Virus genome (UHGV): UHGV-0142951
Direction: 5' to 3' (one strand)
Length of the DNA stretch: 21,565 bases
Origin: a virus
Position numbers and translations under genes: made by a program. Shown here piece by piece: positions 1,241 through 21,565 of the stretch. The notes below the pieces were generated by a model that did not search any database, was not told the origin of the DNA, and was given only the letters and a program-made list of their open reading frames with translations. The stretch's first letter is position 1. Every line of letters begins with the position of its first letter.

Positions 1241-1383
1241 ATGTCCGCAGTAAACGCGCATCTCACGCGCATATTAACGAGAGCCTTTCAGTAAGCGAGC
1301 CTGAGAAATGCCGTTATAGGTGGCGACCTCTCTCGGGCGGCTTTTCTGTGAGACAGGCTCACTTTCTAAAAGGTAAAGACGCA

Positions 1384-1926
1384 ATGAACTACCCAACCGT
1401 TGTTAACGATATAGATTTCAGAGACCTAATTTTTGTAGCAAACAACGATCCGGTTACAGATTCTTTTATGGTGGCAAAAGCATTTGGAAAGCTGCCGAAG
1501 AACGTAGTCCGTGACATTGAGCGAACCATAGAAGCTTGCCCTCCTGAGTTTGATACAAAGCTCAACTTTGAGCTTTGCTATAAAAACAATGAGTTACAGA
1601 ATGGTAAGCCGCAAAAATTCTACCGTCTCCGTAAGGATGGGTTGATGCTTTTGGTTATGTCCTACACCAAAAAAGAAGCAATGCGTATCAAAATTGCTTA
1701 CATCAACGCATTTAACTGGATGTACGCCATGCTTCAGGTTGGTCATCGTCAATTTGAAGAAGAGAGAAATGCCGTAATGCTGGAGTACATGAAAGAGAAG
1801 GATGTTGCCAGCATGTCAGGTCGTCTGCTCAATCGCTGGGGAAAAATTAAGAAGCCTCAGCTACTGGCGAGAATTGAACGCCTTGAACAGCACGGGCAAA
1901 CCGTAATCCCCGGACTCACCAATTAA
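1384..1926 (+). CDS. rha: Rha-family phage regulatory protein (pRha domain)
   Basis: ORF track 1348..1926; preferred start ATG 1384 (AAAGG upstream), protein begins MNYPTVVND. Recalled Rha-family features: N-terminal VTDSFMVAKAFGK...NVVRDIE and core RLRKDGLMLLVMSYTKKEAMRIKIAYINAFNWM. Confidence 0.6.
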   Translation: MNYPTVVNDIDFRDLIFVANNDPVTDSFMVAKAFGKLPKNVVRDIERTIEACPPEFDTKLNFELCYKNNELQNGKPQKFYRLRKDGLMLLVMSYTKKEAMRIKIAYINAFNWMYAMLQVGHRQFEEERNAVMLEYMKEKDVASMSGRLLNRWGKIKKPQLLARIERLEQHGQTVIPGLTN

Positions 1927-11294: not shown

Positions 11295-11995
11295 TGGCTG
11301 ATTCGAATCTCAACACCCCTGTTATTGTGCAGGCGACGCGGCTCGATACATCAATCCTTCCACGCAATATATTCAGCCAGTCTTACCTGCTGTATGTCAT
11401 TAATCAGGGGGCTGATGTCGGCGCAATTGCCGGGAAGGCAAATCAGGCTGGTCAGGGCGCTTACGATGCTCAGGTGAAAAACGATGAACAGGACGTCGAA
11501 CTGGCAGATCACGATTCAAGAATCACCGCAAACACAAAAGCGATAAATCTCCTTGAGGTCAGGTTAACAACCGCCGAAGGGAAGATAGTCGTACTGCGTA
11601 GCGATGTTGATTACTTGCTGGATGAGGTTATCGATATTCAGGCGCATCTGGTCACTGTTGACAAAAGACTGGATGACGTAGAAAACGATGTCTCTGGCAT
11701 TAAGAGTGATTACGTATCGAAAACCGTAACAGAATCGCAGTCTCTTGCGTCACCGCTGGATGTAAAAACATCATATTCAGTTGATGGAATTCAGGTTGTT
11801 GGAGCAAGAAATACCGGATGGACTGCAGCCACAGGTACGCCACTTCTTGGCTCATTCAACGCTAACCAGTCATACACTGTCGGCACTACGTACACACAAT
11901 CCGAAGTCGCAGCTCTCGCTACAGGTTTGCAGCAGGCGCGGCAGCGTATTCTGGCGCTTGAAACAGCACTTAGATTACATGGGCTGATTGACTGA
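11294..11995 (+). CDS. Tail needle / cell-puncturing protein (P22 gp26-like), 233 aa
   Basis: Internal ATG 11294 of track ORF 11192..11995 (TAATG overlap with the gp10-like stop). N-terminus [35 protein letters not shown] and C-terminus ALRLHGLID match recalled P22 gp26. Confidence 0.85.
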
Positions 11996-12450
11996 TGATT
12001 ACATTCAAACCAACGCGAAACATCGACCTGATAGAAGCAGTAGGAAATCACCCTGACATTATTGCTGGAAGCAACAACGGTGATGGATACGACTACAAGC
12101 CTGAATGCCGTTACTTTGAGGTTAACGTGCACGGTCAGTTTGGCGGCATTGTTTACTACCAGGAGATTCAGCCGCTTACATTCGATTGCCACGCCATGTA
12201 CCTGCCAGAGGTTCGCGGATTCAGCAAGGAAATCGGGCTGGCGTTCTGGCGATACATTCTGACTAACACCACCGTTCAGTGCGTCACATCGTTCGCTGCA
12301 CGCAAATTCCGCCACGGGCAGATGTACTGCGCAATTATTGGCCTTAAGCGTGTAGGAACCATCAAGAAATACTTCAAAGGCGTGGATGACGTGACTTTTT
12401 ACAGCGCCACACGCGAAGAACTAATCGACTTCCTGAATCACGGGAGATAG
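11995..12450 (+). CDS. P22 gp14-like protein
   Basis: ORF track 11995..12450, 151 aa. TGATG overlap with the needle gene; conserved position before the ejection proteins. Assignment is mainly by synteny. Confidence 0.55.
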   Translation: MITFKPTRNIDLIEAVGNHPDIIAGSNNGDGYDYKPECRYFEVNVHGQFGGIVYYQEIQPLTFDCHAMYLPEVRGFSKEIGLAFWRYILTNTTVQCVTSFAARKFRHGQMYCAIIGLKRVGTIKKYFKGVDDVTFYSATREELIDFLNHGR

Positions 12451-12452
12451 CC

Positions 12453-13145
12453 ATGTTATATGCATTTAAGCTGGGCAGAAAACTGCGCGGCGAGGAACCT
12501 TATCACCCTGAAAAAGGCGGGAAGGGTGGCTCCGATAAAAGCGCAAAGTATGCAGCAGAAGCTCAGAAGTATGCCGCAGACCTGCAACATCAGCAGTGGC
12601 AGACGATCATGAAAAACCTTGCTCCGTTCACGCCTCTTGCGGAGCAGTATGTTAACCAGCTTCAGAACCTTTCCAGTTTAGAAGGTCAGGGGCAGGCACT
12701 TAACCAGTATTACAACTCTCAGCAGTACAAAGATCTTGCTGGTCAGGCTCGCTATCAGAGTCTGGCGGCAGCGGAAGCAACAGGTGGATTGGGTTCCACT
12801 GCAACCGGTAATCAGTTAGCAACAATCGCACCAACGCTTGGTCAGCAGTGGCTGTCTGGTCAGATGAACAACTACAACAACCTGGCAAACATTGGCCTTG
12901 GTGCGCTGCAAGGTCAGGCAAACGCCGGGCAGACATATGCCAACAACATGAGTCAGATTTCGCAGCAAAGTGCGGCTCTTGCCGCTGCTAATGCCAATAA
13001 ACCATCAGGCCTTCAGACAGCAATTAGCGGCGGAGCTTCAGGGGCTATGACTGGCGCTGCTCTTGGCTCTATTGTTCCAGGACTTGGCACTGGATTAGGT
13101 GCGGCAATTGGCGGCGGACTTGGCCTGCTTGGCTCGTTGTTTTAA
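12453..13145 (+). CDS. Ejection (internal virion) protein, P22 gp7-like
   Basis: ORF track 12453..13145, 230 aa (P22 gp7 is about 229 aa). Q-rich middle and Gly-rich hydrophobic C-terminus (GLGTGLGAAIGGGLGLLGSLF). Synteny. Confidence 0.7.
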   Translation: MLYAFKLGRKLRGEEPYHPEKGGKGGSDKSAKYAAEAQKYAADLQHQQWQTIMKNLAPFTPLAEQYVNQLQNLSSLEGQGQALNQYYNSQQYKDLAGQARYQSLAAAEATGGLGSTATGNQLATIAPTLGQQWLSGQMNNYNNLANIGLGALQGQANAGQTYANNMSQISQQSAALAAANANKPSGLQTAISGGASGAMTGAALGSIVPGLGTGLGAAIGGGLGLLGSLF

Positions 13146-13154
13146 GGGGTAATC

Positions 13155-14621
13155 ATGGCTACTTGGCAAGGAACAAATGGCGGATTGTTGGCTGGTATCG
13201 GTGGTGTCAACTCAAACGCTCCGAGCGTAAATGACATCGGCAATACGCTTCAGCTTATCAGGCAGAACAATGATATTGAGCGTTCAGGCGCTAACAATGT
13301 TGGGCTGACTGCTTTGCAAGGCCTTTCAGGTATTGCAGGGGTGTTTCAGCAGGAAAAGCAGGCTCAGCGGCAGAAAGAATTTCAGCAGGCGTACGCTAAT
13401 GCTTATGCGTCTGGTGATCGCGGTGCTTTGCGTCAGTTGGCTACTCAATATCCAGACCAGATTGAATCTGTTCGCAAAGGCATGGGATTCATTGATGAAG
13501 ACCAGCGCAATTCTATCGGCACCTTAGCGGCTGGCGCACGCCTTGCGGCCTCGTCTCCAGAAGCAATGCAATCATGGCTGCAAAACAACGCCAAGGAACT
13601 GACTCGCGTCGGTGTTGACCCTAATAACGTTGCTCAGATGTATCAGCAGAATCCTTCAGGATTTGGTGAGTTTGTTGATCACCTTGGGATGGCTGCTCTT
13701 GGTCCGATTGATTACTTCAATGTTCAGGACAAGATGGCTGGTCGTGAGATTGACCGAGGCAGACTGGCAGAGACAATCCGCAGCAATCAGGCTGGTGAAG
13801 CACTTCAGGCGAGAGGGCAGGATATTAGCCGAGCAAATGCGTTAACGTCAGCATATGCACCAACAGCCGCAATGCAGAATTACAATCAGTACGCGCAAAT
13901 GTTAAAGGTAGATCCAGATGGTGCAGCGGCATTTGCGGCAGCGGCGGGAATTAATCCCAATGCTAAGAAATTACTTAAGGTTGAAACCAATCCTGATGGC
14001 TCGGTAACTAAGTATTACACCGATGGCAGCGAGGAAGCCGGAAAACTAAACCAACCTATATCTGGTGATGGCATTAAACCAATTAGCTTGCCACAAGCGC
14101 AAAGCATCATAGATAAGGCTAATGAGGGTTCCAAGAAGGCGGCGGGATTTGCTTTGCGATTAAAAGATTCAATGGACTCAATGAATCAGCTTAGTAAAAG
14201 CATTGACCCTAAGCGAGTTGCATTAATAAATCGCTCTCTTGGTGATGGAACTATTGCAAATTTAAGCCTATCACCAGCGGAGCAGCAATATATGGTAAAT
14301 GCGAGAGACGCCTTGTATGCAATTTTGCGCCCAGAAACAGGTGCAGCAATTACTCTGCCAGAGATGCAGGAGTATTCCAAAATGTACCTCCCTCAGCCCG
14401 GTGATTCCAAGGCTGCTACTGAAACAAAAATGCGAAAAATGCAGGGCCAATATAACTCATTACGTGGTCAGTCTGGTCGCGTTTATGATGCTTTGGTGGT
14501 TTCAAGTGCTGCAAATAGTCAACAACAGAGCAATAGCCAACAACCGACAAATACCCAACAGCAGCAGAGTCAATCCGGATCATATACCTCAAAATCAGGC
14601 ATTCAATTTACGGTGGAATGA
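13155..14621 (+). CDS. Ejection protein, P22 gp20-like
   Basis: ORF track 13155..14621, 488 aa. AAGGGG upstream; synteny between the gp7-like and gp16-like genes. Confidence 0.7.
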
Positions 14622-16849
14622 TGAAAGTAACTGCAAACGGTAAGACATTTACCTTTCCTGATGGTACGAGCACCGAAGATATTGGCACCGCCATTGATGA
14701 GTATTTTGCTGGTCAGGCTGTTCAGCAACAAACAGTTAATCAGGCCAATAATGCACCAACACGGGAAGAACCATCATTGATGCAACAAGCTGGCGATTGG
14801 CTCACTGGTGGTCAAAGTGCAGAGCAAATTGCAGAACAGGCTGGTCGTGGTCTGGTAAACATACCATTTGACGTATTGCAGGGTGGCGCAAGTCTGATTA
14901 ATGCAATCAGTCAGGGGCTTGGGGGGCCAAAAGTATTGGATGATGTTTATCGTCCAGTAGACAGACCGACAGACCCCTACGCGCAAGCTGGAGAGTCAAT
15001 AGGCGGTTATCTTGTTCCTGGAGCAGGTGTAGCTGGAAACATGGTCATTGGTTCTCTCGCTGACGCGGCGAATCAACGGGGTGATTTTGCCGAAAATGCC
15101 GCTATTAATGCCGGACTTAACATTGCTACGCATGGCCTGATAAATGGCGTTACCCGTGGTGTTCGTGGTGCATCAAATATAATTAGTGGCAATAAAATAT
15201 CTGCACAGAGAGCGACCACTGCGCCAACAGAAACATCACCATTCTCCGGTGATGCCGCTGCAGCAACAAATCCTGCGGTTCATGCCGCAGAGGCAAGAGT
15301 AGCACAAGGTGTACCAATGACGCCTGCGACGAGGAACCCAGAGGAAGTCGTTCGCACAGTAGCAGCACAAAAAAGGCCAAATCTCGCTTCATCGCTTGAT
15401 GAACTAGATATCAATCCTCAGGCTGAAGTTCTGGAGTCTGCTGAAAGGCTTAATGTTGATTCATTACTCCCTTCACACTTTTCCGGGAACGAGCAATACA
15501 AGGCAGTTGAGCAAGCAATCAAGTCCCGTGCGGGTTCTGCTCTACAGGTGCAGGAAAATGAAGCAATCAGGCAGCTAGCACAGGGCGCGGGGGAGATAAT
15601 TGATCGCGTTTCCGGTGCAAAAGATGCTCTTGGTATGAGCGACAAGTTTATTGATACGGTCAATGGAAGAATGTCTGCGCTGATGAAACGAAGCGACCAG
15701 CTTTATCGCAATGTTGAAAAGGCGATGCCTGCAGGTGCAAAAATTGATGCGCCATCAACAAGGTCAATGCTCAAACAGGTGGCAGAAGATCTTGGCGGGA
15801 TGAAAAACCTTGACCCTATTGAAAAGAGAGTCTTTCGGGCAGTTAATCCAGGCAAGAACGGCGCATTAACTTATGCAAATCTCAATAAGCAACGACGACT
15901 TGTTGGTGATGCACTTCATAGGAATTCTGGACCATATAAAGATACTGATCGCGCTGCTTTATCGAGGCTTTACGGTTCGCTCGCCGATGATCAAAAGGCG
16001 GCGCTGTCAGAGACAAATGCATTACGTGATTTTGAAGTTGCTCAGAGGCTTGTTCAGATGCGAAAAAGCATGGAAGAGCAAATGATTAATCTAACTGGCA
16101 GAACGCTGAACGGTGATGTTTCTCGCAAAGCAACTACAGCACTACAGGCAATGTCGAAAGGCGATGCCAAAGGATTTCGTGAATTGATGCAAAACACGCC
16201 GTCCAGGAAGCTAAGAACCGAGCTACTGGGAACAGGTCTTCGGGATATGCTTTCGAACGGAAAACGTGGCGCTGATTTTAATCCTGCAGGGTTTGCTGAC
16301 TGGTATCAAAACATGTTAGCAAACGGGCAGATGCGCAATCTTGCCCGACATTTACCAAAAGAGACTATGTCAGGTCTGAACGATGTATATAAGGTCGCAA
16401 AGGCTATCAAAGACGCAAAATCTTACGAGATAACCACAGGAAGACTAAACGAGTTCGTCAAACGGTTTAATCGCGTCACTGCGGCAAATGAATTTGTTGC
16501 TAACCATGCCCAACGCATTGGCACTGCGGTTGGTTCAACTGTGTCAGGACCGTTCAGTGCAGTAGGTGCTGTTGCTGGGTCAGAAATTGGGGCAAAAGTC
16601 GCCAGCAAAATCAGGGCGATGGGCGGCGCTGCATCAATGGAATCTGCAGAAAAGCTAATTAGCTCACCAGAATTCCAGAAAGCAGCAAGGCTGGCAGTAA
16701 AACAAGCACCAGAAAGCATCGTTGATACAACTGTAAGACGCTCTTCTGCTTGGCGCTCGTTTTACAACTCACTTCCAGAATCAGATAAGAAAACCATATC
16801 AAGGCTAGGCATCATGTACTGGATGAACAGTGATGATAACCAGAAGTAA
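14618..16849 (+). CDS. Ejection protein, P22 gp16-like
   Basis: ORF track 14618..16849, 743 aa. Overlapping start (ATGATGA) with the gp20-like stop; last gene of the virion module. Confidence 0.7.
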
Positions 16850-16866
16850 CGGAAAGCCACGGATGG

Positions 16867-17037
16867 TTAGTTGCTGTCTTTTTTATATAAATCTCTGAGC
16901 GTATCAAAGACAATTTTCTTTACCATATCGGATTGTTGGTCTGCAATACGCGATGCTATTGGTAGCGATGAATTCAATCGCTTGTCGAGAGCTGGTATTG
17001 TCGCCTCGTTAAGCGGTATGAATGAATATGAATAGCT
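16867..17037 (-). pseudogene. 3' remnant of an mnt-type repressor gene (C-terminal about 56 codons, no start codon or RBS)
   Basis: Minus-strand frame continuing directly after the lipoprotein stop codon translates to ...LPIASRIADQQSDMVKKIVFDTLRDLYKKDSN*. This closely matches the recalled C-terminus of P22 Mnt (...RLADEQSELVKKMVFDTLKDLYKKTT). The N-terminal RHH part is absent. Confidence 0.55.
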
Positions 17038-17523
17038 TTATCTAATGTTGCTGCTACTGTTGCATGTGACGGTGTTTCCAAATCCTGAATTGCAGTTTGT
17101 ATATGTGTCAACGCGTGTTGGGTAAGGTTGAGTTATAACAGGCTGGCGCGCTTTTTGCTCGATCGCTTGCATTGTGTTTACAGCCTGATAATTCAATAAA
17201 GCCTGCTGGAATGCTTGGCTTTGCGCTATTTGTTGGGCTTGTTCTTGGCTTTGTAATTGAACATAAAGATTCTGAAGTTCAAGTCTTGCCTGTGTGTCAC
17301 TTATCTTGCCTTCATCGACACCTTGCCCGAGCATCTTCGCAGCAAGGACATACAGCTTAGGTGTTGGTGCTGATGCCATGCGAGAGTCGTTCTTCAAGCT
17401 GGCATCAAGGCAATTAGCCATATCGCTAAGCTTTGGATAGCGTTGCTCGCAACTTGCCTGATAGTCGCTTACTTTTGCGCACCCAGCCAGCAGAAGCGGG
17501 ATAATTAACAGTGATTTTTTCAT
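17038..17523 (-). CDS. Predicted lipoprotein of unknown function, 161 aa (accessory gene)
   Basis: Internal ATG (17521-17523) of track ORF 17038..17574 with AAGGAGAG upstream. Signal peptide MKKSLLIIPLLLAGC with lipobox LLAGC; Gln-rich helical middle; Cys-containing C-terminus. Lower GC than the structural genes (by eye). Confidence 0.7.
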   Translation of the reverse strand: MKKSLLIIPLLLAGCAKVSDYQASCEQRYPKLSDMANCLDASLKNDSRMASAPTPKLYVLAAKMLGQGVDEGKISDTQARLELQNLYVQLQSQEQAQQIAQSQAFQQALLNYQAVNTMQAIEQKARQPVITQPYPTRVDTYTNCNSGFGNTVTCNSSSNIR

Positions 17524-17557
17524 ATAATTAACTCTCCTTAGTTTTGCGCAGGATACC

Positions 17558-17923
17558 ATGAAAAAAGTTAACATTGGAAATGTACCAAAGATGCTAGTAC
17601 CGCTCTTTGAGAGCGGTACAATTGTGTTTTGTAGAGACTTTCCAGAATGGCAACGCCTGCATCAAAAACTTGGCGTTGACGTGCATGACTCGGACGCCAA
17701 CGGAGCGTCTCATACAATGAGTAGCGAGAATGGTGTTTTGCATGTGATAGGCGTGTTCAATGGCAAACTATCTACTATTGCCCATGAGTGCGCTCACATG
17801 GCATTCGATATCTGCTCAAGGGTAGGTGTTGATGTTGAACCAGGAAGAGCCAACGAGACTTACTGCTACTTAATGAGCAGGCTTGTTGAGTTCTGCGAGC
17901 GACATATCAAAAAGCCGGAGTGA
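17558..17923 (+). CDS. Small HExxH zinc-metallopeptidase-like protein, 121 aa (possibly ImmA/IrrE-like)
   Basis: ORF track 17558..17923. Motif STIAHECAHMAF (His76-Glu77-x-x-His80) with candidate third ligand in VEPGRANETY (Glu94/Glu100); the context resembles the recalled ImmA/IrrE signature (..LAHELGH.. / ..E.EAN..). Divergent from the lipoprotein gene, start codons 34 bp apart. Confidence 0.55.
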   Translation: MKKVNIGNVPKMLVPLFESGTIVFCRDFPEWQRLHQKLGVDVHDSDANGASHTMSSENGVLHVIGVFNGKLSTIAHECAHMAFDICSRVGVDVEPGRANETYCYLMSRLVEFCERHIKKPE

Positions 17924-17931
17924 CCCGGCTT
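17907..17931 (-). terminator. Candidate rho-independent terminator for the minus-strand small gene
   Basis: 7-bp stem AAGCCGG (17912-17918) / CCGGCTT (17925-17931), loop AGTGAC. On the minus strand it is followed by a U-run (plus-strand A-run 17909-13), 5 nt past the stop of gene 17937..18116. Confidence 0.45.
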
Positions 17932-17936
17932 GAGTA

Positions 17937-18116
17937 TTACTTTTTGCTGTCTGGAGTTCGCTTATCCAATACCCAGCCATGACCTGGCTTTGTTGTTGGT
18001 GGAAGCCTTTCGTTGTCCTTGACGGTTGCAAAATTGTCTTTCTTACCGCCGCGTGGGCCAACTTCTTGGTATATTCCGCCGTTTTTTCCTGTGTTTTCAC
18101 CTGGTTTTTTCGCCAT
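17937..18116 (-). CDS. Small basic Gly/Pro-rich protein, 59 aa (YjzC-like pattern, tentative)
   Basis: Internal ATG (18114-18116) of track ORF 17937..18131 with GAGG 6 nt upstream. Protein MAKKPGENTGKNGGIYQEVGPRGGKKDNFATVKDNERLPPTTKPGHGWVLDKRTPDSKK, no hydrophobic segment. Has its own candidate promoter and terminator. Confidence 0.5.
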   Translation of the reverse strand: MAKKPGENTGKNGGIYQEVGPRGGKKDNFATVKDNERLPPTTKPGHGWVLDKRTPDSKK

Positions 18117-18152
18117 GATATACCTCAACATATACCCGTTATTGGGCGATTA

Positions 18153-18181
18153 AATATTGATCTCATTTTATAAGTAGTCAA
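18153..18181 (-). promoter_or_regulatory. Candidate sigma70 promoter for the minus-strand small basic protein gene
   Basis: Minus strand reads TTGACT (plus 18176-18181), 17-nt spacer, AATATT (plus 18153-18158), about 35 nt upstream of the RBS. Confidence 0.3.
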
Positions 18182-18206
18182 TATGGCCCAGGTAAATGCA
18201 AAAATT

Positions 18207-18231
18207 AACCCACCGTCAGGTGGGTTTTTTT
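18207..18231 (+). terminator. Rho-independent terminator (strong on the + strand, A/T-flanked on both sides)
   Basis: Perfect 8-bp stem AACCCACC (18207-18214) / GGTGGGTT (18219-18226), loop GTCA, then a T7 run (18225-18231). Confidence 0.7.
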
Positions 18232-18263
18232 ATCTTCTCTACTTTAAAGATTAAGGAAATACC

Positions 18264-18449
18264 ATGACCATAGAAGAACGTCTGAACAACATTGAGTTGA
18301 ATCAAACCCTGCTTGACCAGCGACTTTCAGATCTTGAGCTTAAAGATCTAGATGTGCAAATATCAGAAGCAGAAGCCAAGCTCTCCAGCTTAAACCACCG
18401 CAGGAAGCAAATCCGCGACAGAATTACTCGTGGACGCGGAGGCTGTTAA
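18264..18449 (+). CDS. Small coiled-coil protein with basic C-terminus, 61 aa, hypothetical
   Basis: ORF track 18264..18449. AAGGA RBS 7 nt upstream. Heptad-like Leu/Ile pattern (IEERLNNIELNQTLLDQRLSDLELKDLDV) then RRKQIRDRITRGRGGC. Confidence 0.45.
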   Translation: MTIEERLNNIELNQTLLDQRLSDLELKDLDVQISEAEAKLSSLNHRRKQIRDRITRGRGGC

Positions 18450-18526
18450 GGTGTGATGGTAATCCTTGCTCACTAAATTTAAGGATGCGAATCTTTCCGG
18501 CCATAGGAGTAATCATGATTTACCCA

Positions 18527-19063
18527 TCAAACAACCCACCAGTTTGCCTGATTGGATACCAGCCTTGCAGTTTTTATGGAATTAATTATGCCATGCTCAA
18601 GAGCCTTGTTAGCATCCAAAATGGTCGAGTCTGCTATCAGGGATGCCCACCTAATATGGGTTCCGATGTCGATATTGAACGTCTCAACGAAGCGATCAAG
18701 ATCGTTATCGAGGCATTTCCCGTACTCTCTCAATCTGGCATGGTCGGCGGCTGGGGAGGCAAAGCACCATAATAGAGGATGTAACAGGAATCTTGATAAT
18801 GGGTTTGCGAAACGTTCTGAGCCAGCCAGGAAAACGATATTAGCTATGGATTCAACATTGCTTATGTTGTGAGTTCTAACGGTAACAGGGAGTGACTTAA
18901 GAAAGTTATACGCAGTAAAGCCAGCGGCAGTTTCCCCTCCCTGACTTGATATATGGATATTTAATTCAGTTGCGCCTTGAGATAATGCGGTGAGACAGTG
19001 GTTCTGAAGTTGCCCAACAGTGGCAGTGTTAACGGGGCATAAGAAATGAATTGTGTGCAGCAT
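18527..19063 (-). CDS. ClpP-fold (S14-like) serine peptidase, 178 aa, translationally coupled to the upstream Mnt-like gene
   Basis: ORF track 18527..19063. Hand alignment to recalled E. coli ClpP: ISSQGGETAAG vs INSPGGVITAG; Ser72 (VESIA) aligns with the ClpP catalytic Ser (GQAASMG); RFANPLSRFLLHP vs RFCLPNSRVMIHQP places His95 at the catalytic His; C-terminal ALEHGIINSI vs AVEYGLVDSI with Asp145/Asp150 nearby. Start ATG overlaps the upstream stop by 1 nt (TAATG). AAGGA RBS lies inside the upstream gene. Confidence 0.65.
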   Translation of the reverse strand: MLHTIHFLCPVNTATVGQLQNHCLTALSQGATELNIHISSQGGETAAGFTAYNFLKSLPVTVRTHNISNVESIANIVFLAGSERFANPLSRFLLHPLLWCFASPAADHARLREYGKCLDNDLDRFVETFNIDIGTHIRWASLIADSTILDANKALEHGIINSIKTARLVSNQANWWVV

Positions 19064-19314
19064 TATTTTTCATCCTTAGCATACATGGTCTTTAGCGTCT
19101 CAACATCGTGTTCAAGATCTATCAATCGTGATGCTATAGTTGCAAGGTCTAGTGCTTGAATGTGTTTATTTTTTTCTGTCCACGCTTCAAGTGCCGCGAC
19201 CATCTCAGCATTTAATGAACGAGAATTAGCCTCAGCCAGTTCAATAAGACGTTCCTTTATCTCTACAGGAAGCCTCAGATTCACTTGAGGGTTTTTGTAC
19301 TTACGATCAGACAT
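19063..19314 (-). CDS. mnt: Mnt-like ribbon-helix-helix repressor, 83 aa
   Basis: Track ORF 19063..19320 begins at a GTG; preferred ATG 19312-19314 with AGGA 7 nt upstream. NPQVNLRLPVEIKERLIELAEANSRSLNAEMV resembles recalled P22 Mnt (DPHFNFRMPMEVREKLKFRAEANGRSMNSELL). C-terminal helix ...VETLKTMYAKDEK. Confidence 0.7.
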   Translation of the reverse strand: MSDRKYKNPQVNLRLPVEIKERLIELAEANSRSLNAEMVAALEAWTEKNKHIQALDLATIASRLIDLEHDVETLKTMYAKDEK

Positions 19315-19331
19315 CGGCACATCCTGAATAA

Positions 19332-19571
19332 TTATTTACCATACATGGTCTTTAGCGTCTCAAGTAGCGCCTCTTTGAATTTATCAGCTTCTTGGTTAGC
19401 GAATCCTTCAAGTGAGCGAGAGCCATCAAGATTATCAACATGTTTTTGAAGGATAAGCACGATCTCTGAGTTCATTGATCTGCCGTTTTTATCCGCTTCT
19501 TGCTGAATGCGTTTCTTTAAATAGTCTGGAATCCTAATCCCCAATGGACTGATATCTCTTGCACCTTTCAT
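19332..19571 (-). CDS. Second RHH repressor paralog, 79 aa (Arc-like N-terminus MKG..., Mnt-like C-terminal extension)
   Basis: Internal ATG (19569-19571) of track ORF 19332..19613 with GGAGGAGAA directly upstream. ISPLGIRIPDYLKKRIQQEADKNGRSMNSEIV is an RHH fold; C-terminus ...LLETLKTMYGK. Occupies the mnt position beside the divergent promoter region. Confidence 0.7.
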   Translation of the reverse strand: MKGARDISPLGIRIPDYLKKRIQQEADKNGRSMNSEIVLILQKHVDNLDGSRSLEGFANQEADKFKEALLETLKTMYGK

Positions 19572-19596
19572 TTCTCCTCCTGCACGCTGTGCATAG

Positions 19597-19666
19597 CTAC
19601 ACAGTGTAGGCAAAAAAATTTTGACTTTAAATAAACACGGTGTAGTATTTAGTTATCACGGTGTAG
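19597..19666. promoter_or_regulatory. Candidate operator cluster in the divergent mnt/arc control region
   Basis: Near-perfect palindrome CTACACAGTGTAG (19597-19609) plus two direct copies of CACGGTGTAG (19636-19645 and 19657-19666) spaced 21 bp apart. Four TGTAG/CTACA half-sites within about 70 bp between divergent RHH genes. Confidence 0.45.
19621..19648 (+). promoter_or_regulatory. Candidate Pant-like sigma70 promoter driving the arc-like and ant genes
   Basis: TTGACT (19621-19626), 16-nt spacer, TAGTAT (19643-19648). Overlapped by the CACGGTGTAG repeats. About 30 nt upstream of the arc-like RBS AAGGGGA. Confidence 0.4.
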
Positions 19667-19679
19667 CAAGCAAGGGGAA

Positions 19680-19820
19680 ATGAAAGTTAGAGACATCGCT
19701 CCATTAGGGATTCGTATCCCGCCAGAGATTAAAGAAAAATTGAAGGAAAAGGCTAAGGAGGAGGGCAGGTCTTTAAATTCAGAAATAGTGCAGCGTCTTA
19801 TTCGCAGCCTAAAAAGTTGA
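19680..19820 (+). CDS. arc: Arc-like ribbon-helix-helix repressor, 46 aa (below the ORF-track size cutoff)
   Basis: ATG 19680 with AAGGGGA upstream; stop TGA 19818-19820. My translation: MKVRDIAPLGIRIPPEIKEKLKEKAKEEGRSLNSEIVQRLIRSLKS, an RHH fold (beta strand then ..GRSLNSEI.. helix) as in recalled P22 Arc. Position immediately upstream of ant as in P22 immI. Confidence 0.7.
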   Translation: MKVRDIAPLGIRIPPEIKEKLKEKAKEEGRSLNSEIVQRLIRSLKS

Positions 19821-19884
19821 AGCCCCAACTGCGGGAACAGTCAGGGCTTCGGTATCGTAAAACCACGCATAGGAATTAACGACA
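19811..19884 (-). ncRNA. Candidate sar-like antisense RNA covering the ant ribosome-binding site
   Basis: Minus-strand promoter-like TTGATT (plus 19913-19918), 17 nt, TACACT (plus 19890-19895) inside the first ant codons. Minus-strand hairpin (7-bp stem 19819-19825 / 19844-19850 with inner 4-bp stem) followed by AAC then a U5 run (plus A-run 19811-19815). Predicted RNA of about 70 nt, complementary to the ant SD and start, analogous to P22 sar. Confidence 0.3.
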
Positions 19885-20807
19885 TGACGAGTGTAGCAAT
19901 TGCAGAACATACAATCAACGTTCCATTCCACGGAACAAATCTCTTTTTGGTCAGCATTAACAATGAACCTTACGTTCCTATGAAACCCGTTGTAGAAGGC
20001 ATGGGTATGGTTTGGGCTGCTCAATTTGTTAAATTAAAACAGAGATTTGTCAAAGGTATTTCGGAAATCGAAATACCTTCTGCTGGCGGTAAACAGTTAA
20101 TGATATGCCTTGCCTTTCGTAAGTTTGCGGCTTGGCTTTCAAGCATTCAGCCAAACAAAGTCCGCCCTGAAATCCGCGACAAGGTAATCCAGTATCAGGA
20201 AGAGTGTGACGATGTGCTCTACGAATACTGGACTAAAGGCCATGTAGTTAACCCGCGCAAAGCTAAAAAGGCATTGCCGGGGAAAATCACCACTGAACAG
20301 CAGGAAGCCATTAAACAACTCGTCATGAGTCGCGGTCAGTCTCTTCCAAAAGAAAAACAGGCTAAGGCGATGATCACCATGTGGTCGTCACTGAAATCCC
20401 ATTTTGGATGTTCGTACAAAGAGATCAGTGAGGAGCAGTTTACCGAAGCACTATCACTTGCAGCTCGAGTTCCACTTGAAGGTGAGTTCATTGGCAAACA
20501 AGAGAAGAAAGCAAACGAGCTTTCTGCAAAAGAAGCAAACAGCCTTGTATGGTTATGGGATTATGCCAACCGCTCACAGGCATTATTCCGCGAACTGTAT
20601 CCGGCGCTAAAACAAATTCAATCGAACTATTCCGGCAGATGTCATGACTGCGGTTATGAGTTCTCCCGTATTATCGATATGGCGAGAGATGTTTTAATCA
20701 ACCATACACGAGATGTTGATATTAATGAGCCAGACGGACCAACGAATCTTTCCGCATGGATGAGACTTAAGAATAAAGAATTACCTCCTTCAGTACATAA
20801 CTACTGA
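19884..20807 (+). CDS. ant: Antirepressor (P22 Ant-like)
   Basis: ORF track 19884..20807, 307 aa. AGGA 8 nt upstream; directly downstream of the arc-like gene and followed by a terminator, as in P22 immI. N-terminal region (VPFHGTNLFLVSINNEPYVPMKPVVEGMGMVWAAQ) is consistent with the P22 antirepressor N-terminal domain as recalled. Confidence 0.65.
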   Translation: MTSVAIAEHTINVPFHGTNLFLVSINNEPYVPMKPVVEGMGMVWAAQFVKLKQRFVKGISEIEIPSAGGKQLMICLAFRKFAAWLSSIQPNKVRPEIRDKVIQYQEECDDVLYEYWTKGHVVNPRKAKKALPGKITTEQQEAIKQLVMSRGQSLPKEKQAKAMITMWSSLKSHFGCSYKEISEEQFTEALSLAARVPLEGEFIGKQEKKANELSAKEANSLVWLWDYANRSQALFRELYPALKQIQSNYSGRCHDCGYEFSRIIDMARDVLINHTRDVDINEPDGPTNLSAWMRLKNKELPPSVHNY

Positions 20808-20825
20808 CAGATAACCAACGCAACG

Positions 20826-20849
20826 ACCCAGCTTCGGCTGGGTTTTTTT
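20826..20849 (+). terminator. Rho-independent terminator after ant
   Basis: Stem ACCCAGC (20826-20832) / GCTGGGT (20837-20843) with TTCG tetraloop, then a T7 run (20843-20849). Confidence 0.8.
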
Positions 20850-20907
20850 ATGCCCAAAATTCACCGTAGCCATGCTGCGGCGATTCCTTGTATCTGGAGC
20901 AAATTAA

Positions 20908-21565
20908 ATGACAGATATCACCGCAAATGTTGTGGTAAGCATGCCTTCGCAACTCTTCACTATGGCGCGTTCTTTTAAAGCTGTAGCCAATGGCAAAATT
21001 TATATCGGTAAAATTGACACTGACCCGGTAAATCCTGAAAACCAGATTCAGGCTTATGTGGAGAACGAAGACGGCTCTCACGTTCCTGTTTCGCAACCAA
21101 TCATCATTAACGCTGCTGGATATCCGGTATATAACGGACAGATTGCCAAGTTCGTTACCGTGCAAGGCCATTCTATGGCTGTTTATGATGCGTATGGTGC
21201 GCAGCAGTTCTATTTTCCTAATGTGCTGAAGTATGACCCTGATCAACTACGGCAGCAATTAGAAGACCCAGATGGAGCGAATAAATACCCAAAACTTCAG
21301 ATAGCAAGATGGAGAGACAGTTATGATGTAAGAGGTTGGGGGGCTATTGGTGATGGTGTTCATGATGATACATCAGCTCTATCAGAATTACTTTCTGTTG
21401 CAACAGGTGGTGAAAAGATAGATGGGCGAGGGCTTACTTTTAAAGTATCAACTCTTCCAGATGTCAGTCGATTTAAAAATGCTCGTTTTTTATTTGAGAG
21501 AATACCGGGTCAGCCTCTTTTTTATGCTTCTGAAGATTTTATCCAGGGAGAGTTATTTAAAATTA
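20908..21565 (+). CDS. Tailspike protein, N-terminal part (conserved P22-type head-binding domain, then the start of a divergent receptor-binding domain); truncated by the window end
   Basis: ATG 20908 with GGAG 8 nt upstream. My translation [59 protein letters not shown]...[31 protein letters not shown] matches the recalled P22 gp9 head-binding domain. Downstream sequence ([24 protein letters not shown]) resembles the start of a pectate-lyase-type beta helix. Not in the ORF track because it has no stop within the window. Confidence 0.9.

Follow-up and report, generated by a model that had tools for sequence, protein, structure and literature searches.

Organization of the Locus

The DNA analyzed here, referred to as the window, is a 21,565-nucleotide stretch of viral sequence (UHGV-0142951) that ends inside a tailspike gene. 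Apart from this gene, the window consists of a P22-like late region encoding a lysozyme, Rz, a Rha-family protein, a Sf6-type small terminase, the large terminase, the portal, scaffold and coat proteins, tail-hub proteins of the gp4/gp10/gp26 type and ejection proteins, followed by an immI-like block with two Arc/Mnt-like genes and Ant. The tailspike gene sits at the end of the P22-like late operon and after the immI (arc/mnt/ant) region. Its reading frame starts with the ATG at 20908 on the plus strand and is still open at the window end after 219 codons, with a GGAG sequence at 20895-20898, nine bases 5′ of the start codon.

The ant gene occupies 19884-20807, with the tailspike ATG 100 nt downstream. 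The intergenic sequence (20808-20907) is 98% identical to that of CUS-3, M15, 611R6, EC.P3 and HK620 in a global gapped DNA alignment, whose identities are reliable before the tailspike junction described below and inflated past it; breakpoints were mapped by ungapped, codon-registered comparison. The equivalent 101 bp of the CUS-3 record are annotated as bsq1, a boundary sequence, and within this conserved interval lies, at 20825-20844, a hairpin with an 8-bp stem including five GC pairs, followed by TTTTTAT. The features of the region are as follows, all on the plus strand:

20825..20852, plus strand: terminator-like hairpin and T-run (t_ant equivalent) between ant and the tailspike gene, within the conserved boundary sequence
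20908..21246, plus strand: P22-type head-binding (particle-docking) domain, codons 1-113, from PF09008 and the P22 and Sf6 structures
21238..21267, plus strand: breakpoint 1, codons about 111-120, where homology to all other P22-like tailspike types stops, from identity bins and megablast
21247..21357, plus strand: neck/linker, codons 114-150, portable between anchors and enzymatic domains, from a cluster search and the Gally/683R2 comparison
21343..21543, plus strand: endosialidase N-terminal extension (End_N_terminal), codons 146-212, with extreme third-position AT bias, from PF12218
21429..21565, plus strand: breakpoint 3 and the epsilon15-like (Uetakevirus) cassette match beyond it, from codon 175 (between GGEKIDG and RGLTFKV), from the ZX5 comparison
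21544..21565, plus strand: first residues of the catalytic beta-propeller, codons 213-219, cut by the window end, from the PF12217 start in CUS-3

An antisense reading frame of 132 aa (20848-21246), whose end coincides with the junction, was treated as a chance occurrence; it is interrupted in Sf6.

Head-Binding Domain and Junction

The initial annotation assigned the N-terminus of the protein to a P22-type head-binding domain and placed a modular exchange point right after the residues KYDPDQ, and both proposals are borne out. In Pfam, residues 1-113 align to positions 1-113 of the 113-position PF09008 (Head_binding) profile with an E-value of 2.9e-67 and a score of 224.5 bits (cutoff 24), and in the PDB the N-termini of the solved P22 and Sf6 tailspikes match the same residues with E-values of 1e-46 to 1e-66. 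Over this domain, 86 of 113 residues (76%) are identical to P22 gp9 and 104 of 113 (92%) to Sf6. Against close relatives, the 339 nt of the head-binding segment show 12-23 mismatches, distributed in patches, and the 319 nt behind the junction show 0-3 (Fisher p 8e-5 to 0.013). The patchy substitutions are consistent with ongoing recombination in the head-binding segment.

Immediately behind residue 113 the homology collapses. In ungapped comparison with the non-endosialidase tailspike genes of HK620, Sf6, 611R6 and EC.P3, nucleotide identity stays at 0.9-1.0 as far as nt 21237 and is at the random level of about 0.1-0.5 in the 21238-21267 bin and those that follow, megablast alignments stop at 21236-21264, and no similarity to the P22, Sf6 or HK620 proteins was detected after residues 113-119. 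The local alignment of SiaK1, the CUS-3 tailspike, with K1F gp17 approaches the same point from the other side, starting exactly at L114 (K1F residue 214). The head-binding segment is present in 1,166 of 5,426 complete E. coli genomes. A sample of 60 records spread over the ranking showed most partial alignments ending at gene nt 332-346, corresponding to window positions 21239-21253, with smaller groups ending at gene nt 354-371 and 434-470. As judged from these comparisons, the junction is far beyond chance.

One identical Ant sequence precedes the endosialidase spike, an 895-residue spike or a 799-residue spike, depending on the public contig, and the latter two types show the same identity collapse at the junction. 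Three tailspike types behind one identical Ant attest directly to cassette exchange at this position.

The Endosialidase Module

The sequence behind the junction belongs to the endosialidases. PF12218 aligns to residues 146-212 over its complete length (profile positions 1-67 of 67) with an E-value of 1.7e-37 and 127.4 bits (cutoff 26.3), and the solved structures of endoNF (1V0E, 3GVL) and endoN92 (4HIZ) align to residues 145-219 with E-values of 1e-22 to 1e-26. A tblastn search with residues 114-219 gave matches over the full query length in the endosialidases of K1F, phi92, the K1G/63D-type phages and many other K1 phages. Phage endosialidase tailspikes (endoN) are placed in family GH58 of CAZy. 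The fragment aligns gap-free to CUS-3 SiaK1, in which the PF12217 End_beta_propel domain starts at residue 213, so that the window holds seven propeller residues; the catalytic residues, propeller, barrel, stalk and S74 domain were read from contigs that are identical or near-identical over the overlap. Beyond the window, the module is expected to continue with a six-bladed sialidase beta-propeller into which a beta-barrel is inserted, followed by a stalk and a C-terminal chaperone capable of self-cleavage.

In a separate homologue search, residues 114-219 recovered only nine short fragments, and the full 219 residues only partial proteins of less than 400 aa; these hits displayed the variety of modules but did not suffice for a deep alignment.

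The fragment can thus be divided into a head-binding domain (residues 1-113), a neck with a GWGAxGDG cap (residues 114-150) and an endosialidase module from residue 146. With a probability of roughly 0.93, the segment 20908-21565 represents the opening 657 nt of a tailspike gene that belongs to a CUS-3-like, P22-type (Lederbergvirus) prophage and encodes a chimera of these three parts.

The initial annotation held that the receptor could not be deduced from so short a fragment. This judgment is wrong, given that the 319 nt after the junction are 99-100% identical to siaK1 and its close relatives and that the activity of SiaK1 is experimentally supported. Because of this near-identity and the homology to K1F, the predicted receptor is alpha-2,8-polysialic acid, the K1 capsule of E. 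coli.

Neck, Cap and Further Breakpoints

The neck that joins the two modules is widespread. Of 1.84 billion cluster representatives searched exhaustively, 77 contain it at E ≤ 1e-3, and the solved tailspike 9vvr_A carries the same neck at residues 214-258 (E = 1.2e-13). Domain scanning of 64 neck proteins identified Tail_spike_N (30), Head_binding (11), Phage_tail_fib (3) and T7_tail (2) as anchors on the upstream side; among the downstream domains were pectate-lyase-like PF12708 (21), End_N_terminal (5), the propeller of endosialidases (3) and, in one case, a GDSL esterase.

A second breakpoint, at about nt 21357, coincides with the end of the neck and cap shared by many tailspikes, true beta-helix ones included. 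Gally and 683R2, which are P22-like and carry an unrelated 799-residue spike, retain 77-89% nucleotide identity to the window up to 21356 and are random beyond. A third, at 21429, is marked by vB_EcoP_ZX5, Phi05_1999B and Phi05_2388B, which are 98.5% identical to the window over 21429-21565. Nucleotides 522-2914 of CUS-3 siaK1 are 99.4% identical to the ZX5 tailspike gene, and some E. coli genomes carry only this part of the gene (nt 522-2914). The 99.4% identity of the cassette between a Lederbergvirus and a Uetakevirus points to a recent cross-genus transfer.

Nucleotide Composition

A shift toward AT-richer sequence from about 21240 had also been proposed. Total GC does fall, from 0.442 (20908-21246) to 0.392 (21247-21565), but a drop this large between adjacent segments occurs at 9% of window positions (16% when either direction is counted), and the third-position signal begins later and is confined to codons 146-212. 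Third-position GC (GC3) is 0.43 in the head-binding domain (codons 1-113), 0.31 in codons 114-145, 0.07 in codons 146-174 and 0.16 in codons 175-212. In the intact, near-identical genes of CUS-3, L013 and L017, the remaining 2.3 kb of the module have a GC of 0.43-0.47 and a GC3 of 0.36-0.44, matching the head-binding domain. Because the rest of the module equals the head-binding domain in GC, the AT-rich trough is a patch of about 200 nt and does not represent the whole receptor-binding module.

It is possible, though doubtful, that this patch (codons about 146-212) is a third piece of the gene, acquired separately from a lower-GC donor distinct from the donor of the propeller and stalk. Its GC3 of 0.07-0.16 stands out against the 0.36-0.44 of the rest of the gene, and the homologous segment of K1F has a GC3 of 0.39 (versus 0.12). 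Nowhere else in the gene does GC3 fall nearly as low: the lowest 67-codon stretch of the CUS-3 gene starts at codon 145 with a GC3 of 0.119, while the lowest value elsewhere is 0.269 (stretches starting at codons 81-216 excluded), and the breakpoints at about 21357 and 21429 flank or cut it. However, no lower-GC donor was found, the nearest non-identical DNA relatives being 66-68% identical, and the patch spans the 21429 breakpoint and so does not match a single exchange unit. Its amino acid identity to K1F (0.60) lies inside the 0.53-0.77 of the other domains, and only 67 codons are involved.

Integrity of the Gene

The CUS-3-like tailspike gene of the window can be followed beyond the window end in two public contigs. 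CP164296.1 (L015) has no mismatch to window positions 11884-21565, and GCA_900707035.1 (L012/L022) has two mismatches over the whole 21.5 kb window. Both carry a 1331-bp IS2 element, 100% identical to E. coli IS2 copies, at gene nt 1498-1502, after codon 500, flanked by a 5-bp CTGAC duplication. The left end of the element, following gene nt 1502, reads TAGACTGGCCCC and is also given as TAGACTGGCCCCCTGAATC. Excision of IS2 in silico restores a 981-codon reading frame with 13 differences from CUS-3 SiaK1 in 981 residues, which retains H250, R456, E488, R503 and R554 (H350, R549, E581, R596 and R647 in K1F) as well as the cleavage serine S818. The insertion separates E488 from R503, R554, the stalk and the chaperone, and the stalk and S74 chaperone are present downstream of IS2 in L015/L012, as they are in CUS-3.

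Although the IS2 site lies beyond the window and was read from these matching contigs, the window's own copy is probably disrupted by IS2 and would then be a pseudogene. It appears improbable that the copy is instead intact and encodes a functional K1-specific tailspike of an inducible prophage, like its counterparts in CUS-3, L013 and L017. Intact 981-codon genes with an identical post-junction sequence do exist in L013, L017, CUS-3 and 720R6, all eight of the eight sampled full-length E. coli matches are in a single piece, and the 657 visible nucleotides show no damage. Yet IS2 is present in both CP164296.1 and GCA_900707035.1, the sole public contigs that match the window with 0-2 mismatches over 9.7-21.5 kb, while the intact relatives L013 and L017 each have 14 mismatches in the last 1.7 kb, from ant to the window end, and differ in upstream gene content.

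The Cap Motif and the Beta-Helix Alternative

The protein carries the cap motif h-x-D/W-F/W-G-A-x-G-D-G-x-x-D-D-T-x-A, and its residues there can be aligned with NVKDYGAVGDGVTDDTAAI of 5m5z as well as with comparable motifs of other beta-helix enzymes. The motif string reported by the initial annotation is indeed present, at residues 139-162, and was taken there as the start of a pectate-lyase-like right-handed beta-helix depolymerase. This link is correct in general, including the sibling tailspikes P0134, P0143, P0150 and P0154, which enter PF12708 from the same residues, and wrong for the present gene. Since the same motif starts PF12708 in siblings and an endosialidase here, the motif alone does not decide the fold.

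The chance that the module is nevertheless a pectate-lyase-like right-handed parallel beta-helix (PF12708/PF13229) with an unspecified O-antigen or capsule specificity is negligible, and at the level of sequence families this alternative is refuted. The similarities that speak for it are weak: residues 139-163 match about the first 25 positions of PF12708 (13.3 bits, E = 0.072), solved beta-helix enzymes give cap matches with E-values of 3e-4 (5m5z) and 0.02-1 (3eqn, PfbA, AlgE4 and CBA120 TSP), and sibling head-binding tailspikes with the same neck enter PF12708 from residues 139-141. However, the PF12708 score is below the curated cutoff of 27 and the alignment covers 23 residues only (141-163; profile positions 4-26 of 213), far from the 1.7e-37 of PF12218, and the resemblance to beta-helix enzymes does not extend beyond the cap motif. 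Every full-length gene with the same post-junction DNA encodes End_beta_propel, End_beta_barrel and End_tail_spike, that is, a sialidase propeller, barrel and stalk, together with S74, and a Pfam search found beta-helix families to be absent from these full-length relatives. A vestigial beta-helix coil after the cap motif was likewise not detected when the 70 post-motif residues of the endosialidase group were compared with 29 non-endosialidase siblings by hhalign (probability 2%), a comparison of low power (Neff 1.4). An AlphaFold2 model of residues 114-219, built from an 11-sequence alignment, had a mean pLDDT of 42.5 and a pTM of 0.25, too poor for a fold search, and a usable textual description of the endoNF N-terminal extension was not found in the open-access literature.

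Relationship to Known Tailspikes

The endosialidase chimera encoded at the window end is a close relative of a published, experimentally characterized tailspike, and the module swap that it embodies is a textbook case of host-range exchange that is already known. The nearest system is SiaK1 of CUS-3 (ABQ88383.1), a prophage of E. coli K1 RS218. This 981-residue protein shares 214 of 219 residues (98%) with the fragment, its gene is 99.4% identical over the 319 nt after the junction, and ant, boundary sequence and tailspike follow each other in the same order as in the window. Its Pfam domains are arranged as Head_binding, End_N_terminal, End_beta_propel with an inserted End_beta_barrel, End_tail_spike and Peptidase_S74, and the CUS-3 GenBank record lists experimental evidence for endo-alpha-sialidase activity of SiaK1 (IDA, PMID 16689790; Stummeyer et al. 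2006). The two differ by 23 nt in the head-binding segment, in patches, and CUS-3 covers 60% of the prophage backbone. The contigs that match the window differ from CUS-3 in further respects: their prophage borders on a lambda-type att core beside ybhB/bioA, lacks both the heptanucleotide-repeat region of neuO and the neighbouring integrase that CUS-3 possesses, and carries IS2 in its tailspike gene.

The tailspike endoNF of K1F (gp17; 1V0E, 3GVL) is homologous from residue 114 (K1F residue 214) to the C-terminus, with 53-77% identity per domain across the neck, N-terminal extension, propeller, barrel, stalk and chaperone, and the catalytic residues and the cleavage serine are kept in the full-length relative. 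In contrast, its anchor (residues 1-213) is of the T7 gp17 type, the phage is a lytic Kayfunavirus, and the GC3 of its N-terminal extension is normal. The reverse combination is seen in P22 gp9, Sf6 gp14 and HK620 gp9, which have the same head-binding domain and the same gene position after immI, whereas their bodies are right-handed parallel beta-helix O-antigen hydrolases. Both relationships appear in a review (PMC5380687, citing Stummeyer 2006), which describes the N-terminus as common to CUS-3, HK620, Sf6 and P22 and the endosialidase body as common to CUS-3 and K1F, with K1F having a T7-type N-terminus; the review uses this joining of a P22-type anchor with an endosialidase to illustrate how tailspikes exchange modules.

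The tail protein of ZX5 (Uetakevirus) carries the same cassette, with 99.4% nucleotide identity from codon 175 to about codon 971, but has its own N-terminal anchor of about 230 residues and a GAVGDGINDDS cap, and its joint lies inside the N-terminal extension instead of at the head-binding boundary. Its authors annotated the endosialidase and chaperone domains and did not mention the cassette relationship (PMC9782041).

Proposed Function and Implications

By analogy with P22 gp9, endoNF and CUS-3, an intact trimeric spike of this type would dock to the tail hub via its head-binding domain, and its endosialidase body would bind and cleave polysialic acid, letting the virion cross the capsule. 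The C-terminal chaperone would, on the same analogy, drive trimer folding and then be cleaved at the conserved serine. At the DNA level, the 5′ homology for swapping the receptor-binding cassette comes from the head-binding domain together with the conserved sequence between ant and the tailspike gene, and the neck and cap motif offer extra crossover points.

A further, tentative and rather unlikely proposal is that the 37-residue neck and cap form a portable recombination adaptor that is part of neither flanking domain, with the N-terminal extension starting with a former beta-helix cap and its third-position AT patch being a relic of a separate donor. The neck is common to at least 64 protein clusters, four or five particle anchors and several enzymatic folds. 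If the proposal is true, this adaptor and the nested breakpoints at about 21250, 21357 and 21429 would allow one endosialidase cassette to move among P22-like and epsilon15-like phages, which are temperate, and lytic phages of the T7-like kind.

The present analysis adds modestly to the known exchange of this module, namely breakpoints at nucleotide resolution, evidence for the neck and cap as an exchange unit, a recent cross-genus transfer and the IS2 knock-out in a lysogen. It also carries a warning for the annotation of tailspikes, as a GDGxxDDT cap motif and a local GC dip poorly predict the downstream fold or the extent of a foreign module. The capsule or O-antigen type open to attack by a P22-like phage is set by its tailspike, and the target predicted here, the K1 polysialic-acid capsule, is a key virulence factor in E. 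coli pathogens of the neonatal-meningitis, urinary and avian types.

Interruption of the tailspike gene by insertion sequences

In both public contigs that match the window with 0-2 mismatches (CP164296.1, L015; GCA_900707035.1, L012), the endosialidase tailspike is cut after codon 500 by an IS2 copy, which on the scale of the window lies about 850 nt past its end. The element is flanked by a 5-bp target duplication, CTGAC, at nt 1498-1502 of the gene, and its removal restores an intact 981-codon reading frame. Together with three cases in different lysogens, this brings the separate insertions in this tailspike gene to four.

Insertions in the tailspike gene
L015 10527-11857 (same in L012): IS2 of 1331 bp, matching E. 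coli IS2 copies at 100% identity
L005 7850-8905: IS903B after codon 251, E. coli M15
L003 1559-3986: transposase genes within the head-binding domain, phiv205-1
NZ_CM132301.1: IS3-family element, strain 2022E04-002

The M15, phiv205-1, and 2022E04-002 interruptions are independent events, caused by insertion sequences other than IS2. These losses may stem either from selection in K1 lysogens against an enzyme that degrades the capsule or from ordinary prophage decay.

Divergence of the head-binding domain

Mismatches to the closest relatives within the head-binding domain (20908-21246) are grouped in patches, with the 3′ end of ant on one side and the endosialidase part on the other being near-identical to these relatives.

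Mismatch patches (window coordinates)
20916-20940: versus CUS-3, 720R6, and M15
20982-21150: versus the intact-gene relative L017
21156-21247: versus the intact-gene relative L013

Such a pattern suggests that the patches are short gene-conversion tracts exchanged among co-resident P22-like prophages. Nearly all proteins retrieved with this N-terminus in a protein database search are labelled "partial" and end within 150-380 residues; since the head-binding domain is repeated among prophages, assemblies probably often end within it or shortly past it.

Neighboring genes and probable attachment site

Additional features of the window
1348-1926: gene for a Rha-family regulatory protein whose C-terminal domain is ORF11CD3
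18527-19063, minus strand: ClpP-like protease gene, 178 residues (PF00574, E 2e-11)
19063-19320 and 19332-19613, minus strand: two Arc/Mnt-like repressor genes
20848-21246, minus strand: antisense reading frame of 132 codons spanning the head-binding domain

The ClpP-like gene, located within the immI region and adjoining the two repressor genes, is found again in many related prophages (L012-L019). The Rha-family gene occupies a typical moron position, flanked by lysis genes and the small terminase. The antisense frame ends exactly at the tailspike junction; since Sf6 carries a stop in this frame, it most likely arose by chance.

About 600 nt 3′ of the tailspike stop lies a 15-bp sequence, GCTTTTTTATACTAA (L015 13924; L012 13924; L014 12052; L011 7113), which is the lambda att core. 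Next to it come ybhB-like and bioA/bioB genes; the lineage to which this prophage belongs thus seems to reside at the lambda attachment site. Beside the tailspike, this lineage has neither an integrase nor a neuO heptanucleotide-repeat region, in contrast to CUS-3, which has an attL core, int, and neuO repeats.

Origin of the endosialidase cassette

Extreme third-position AT bias is confined to the N-terminal extension of the endosialidase (21343-21543), with a GC3 of 0.07-0.16 compared to 0.36-0.44 elsewhere in the gene, as read from intact relatives, and in the homologous K1F segment. A search for a donor of this extension found none.

The same endosialidase cassette (regions concerned: window 21429-21565; ZX5, L020, 2542-5661) is carried by vB_EcoP_ZX5, a temperate, epsilon15-like Uetakevirus, but behind a different anchor. 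This implies that the crossover fell inside the N-terminal extension. The 99.4% nucleotide identity to nt 522-2914 of the CUS-3 gene behind a different anchor points to a recent transfer of the cassette between two podophage genera.
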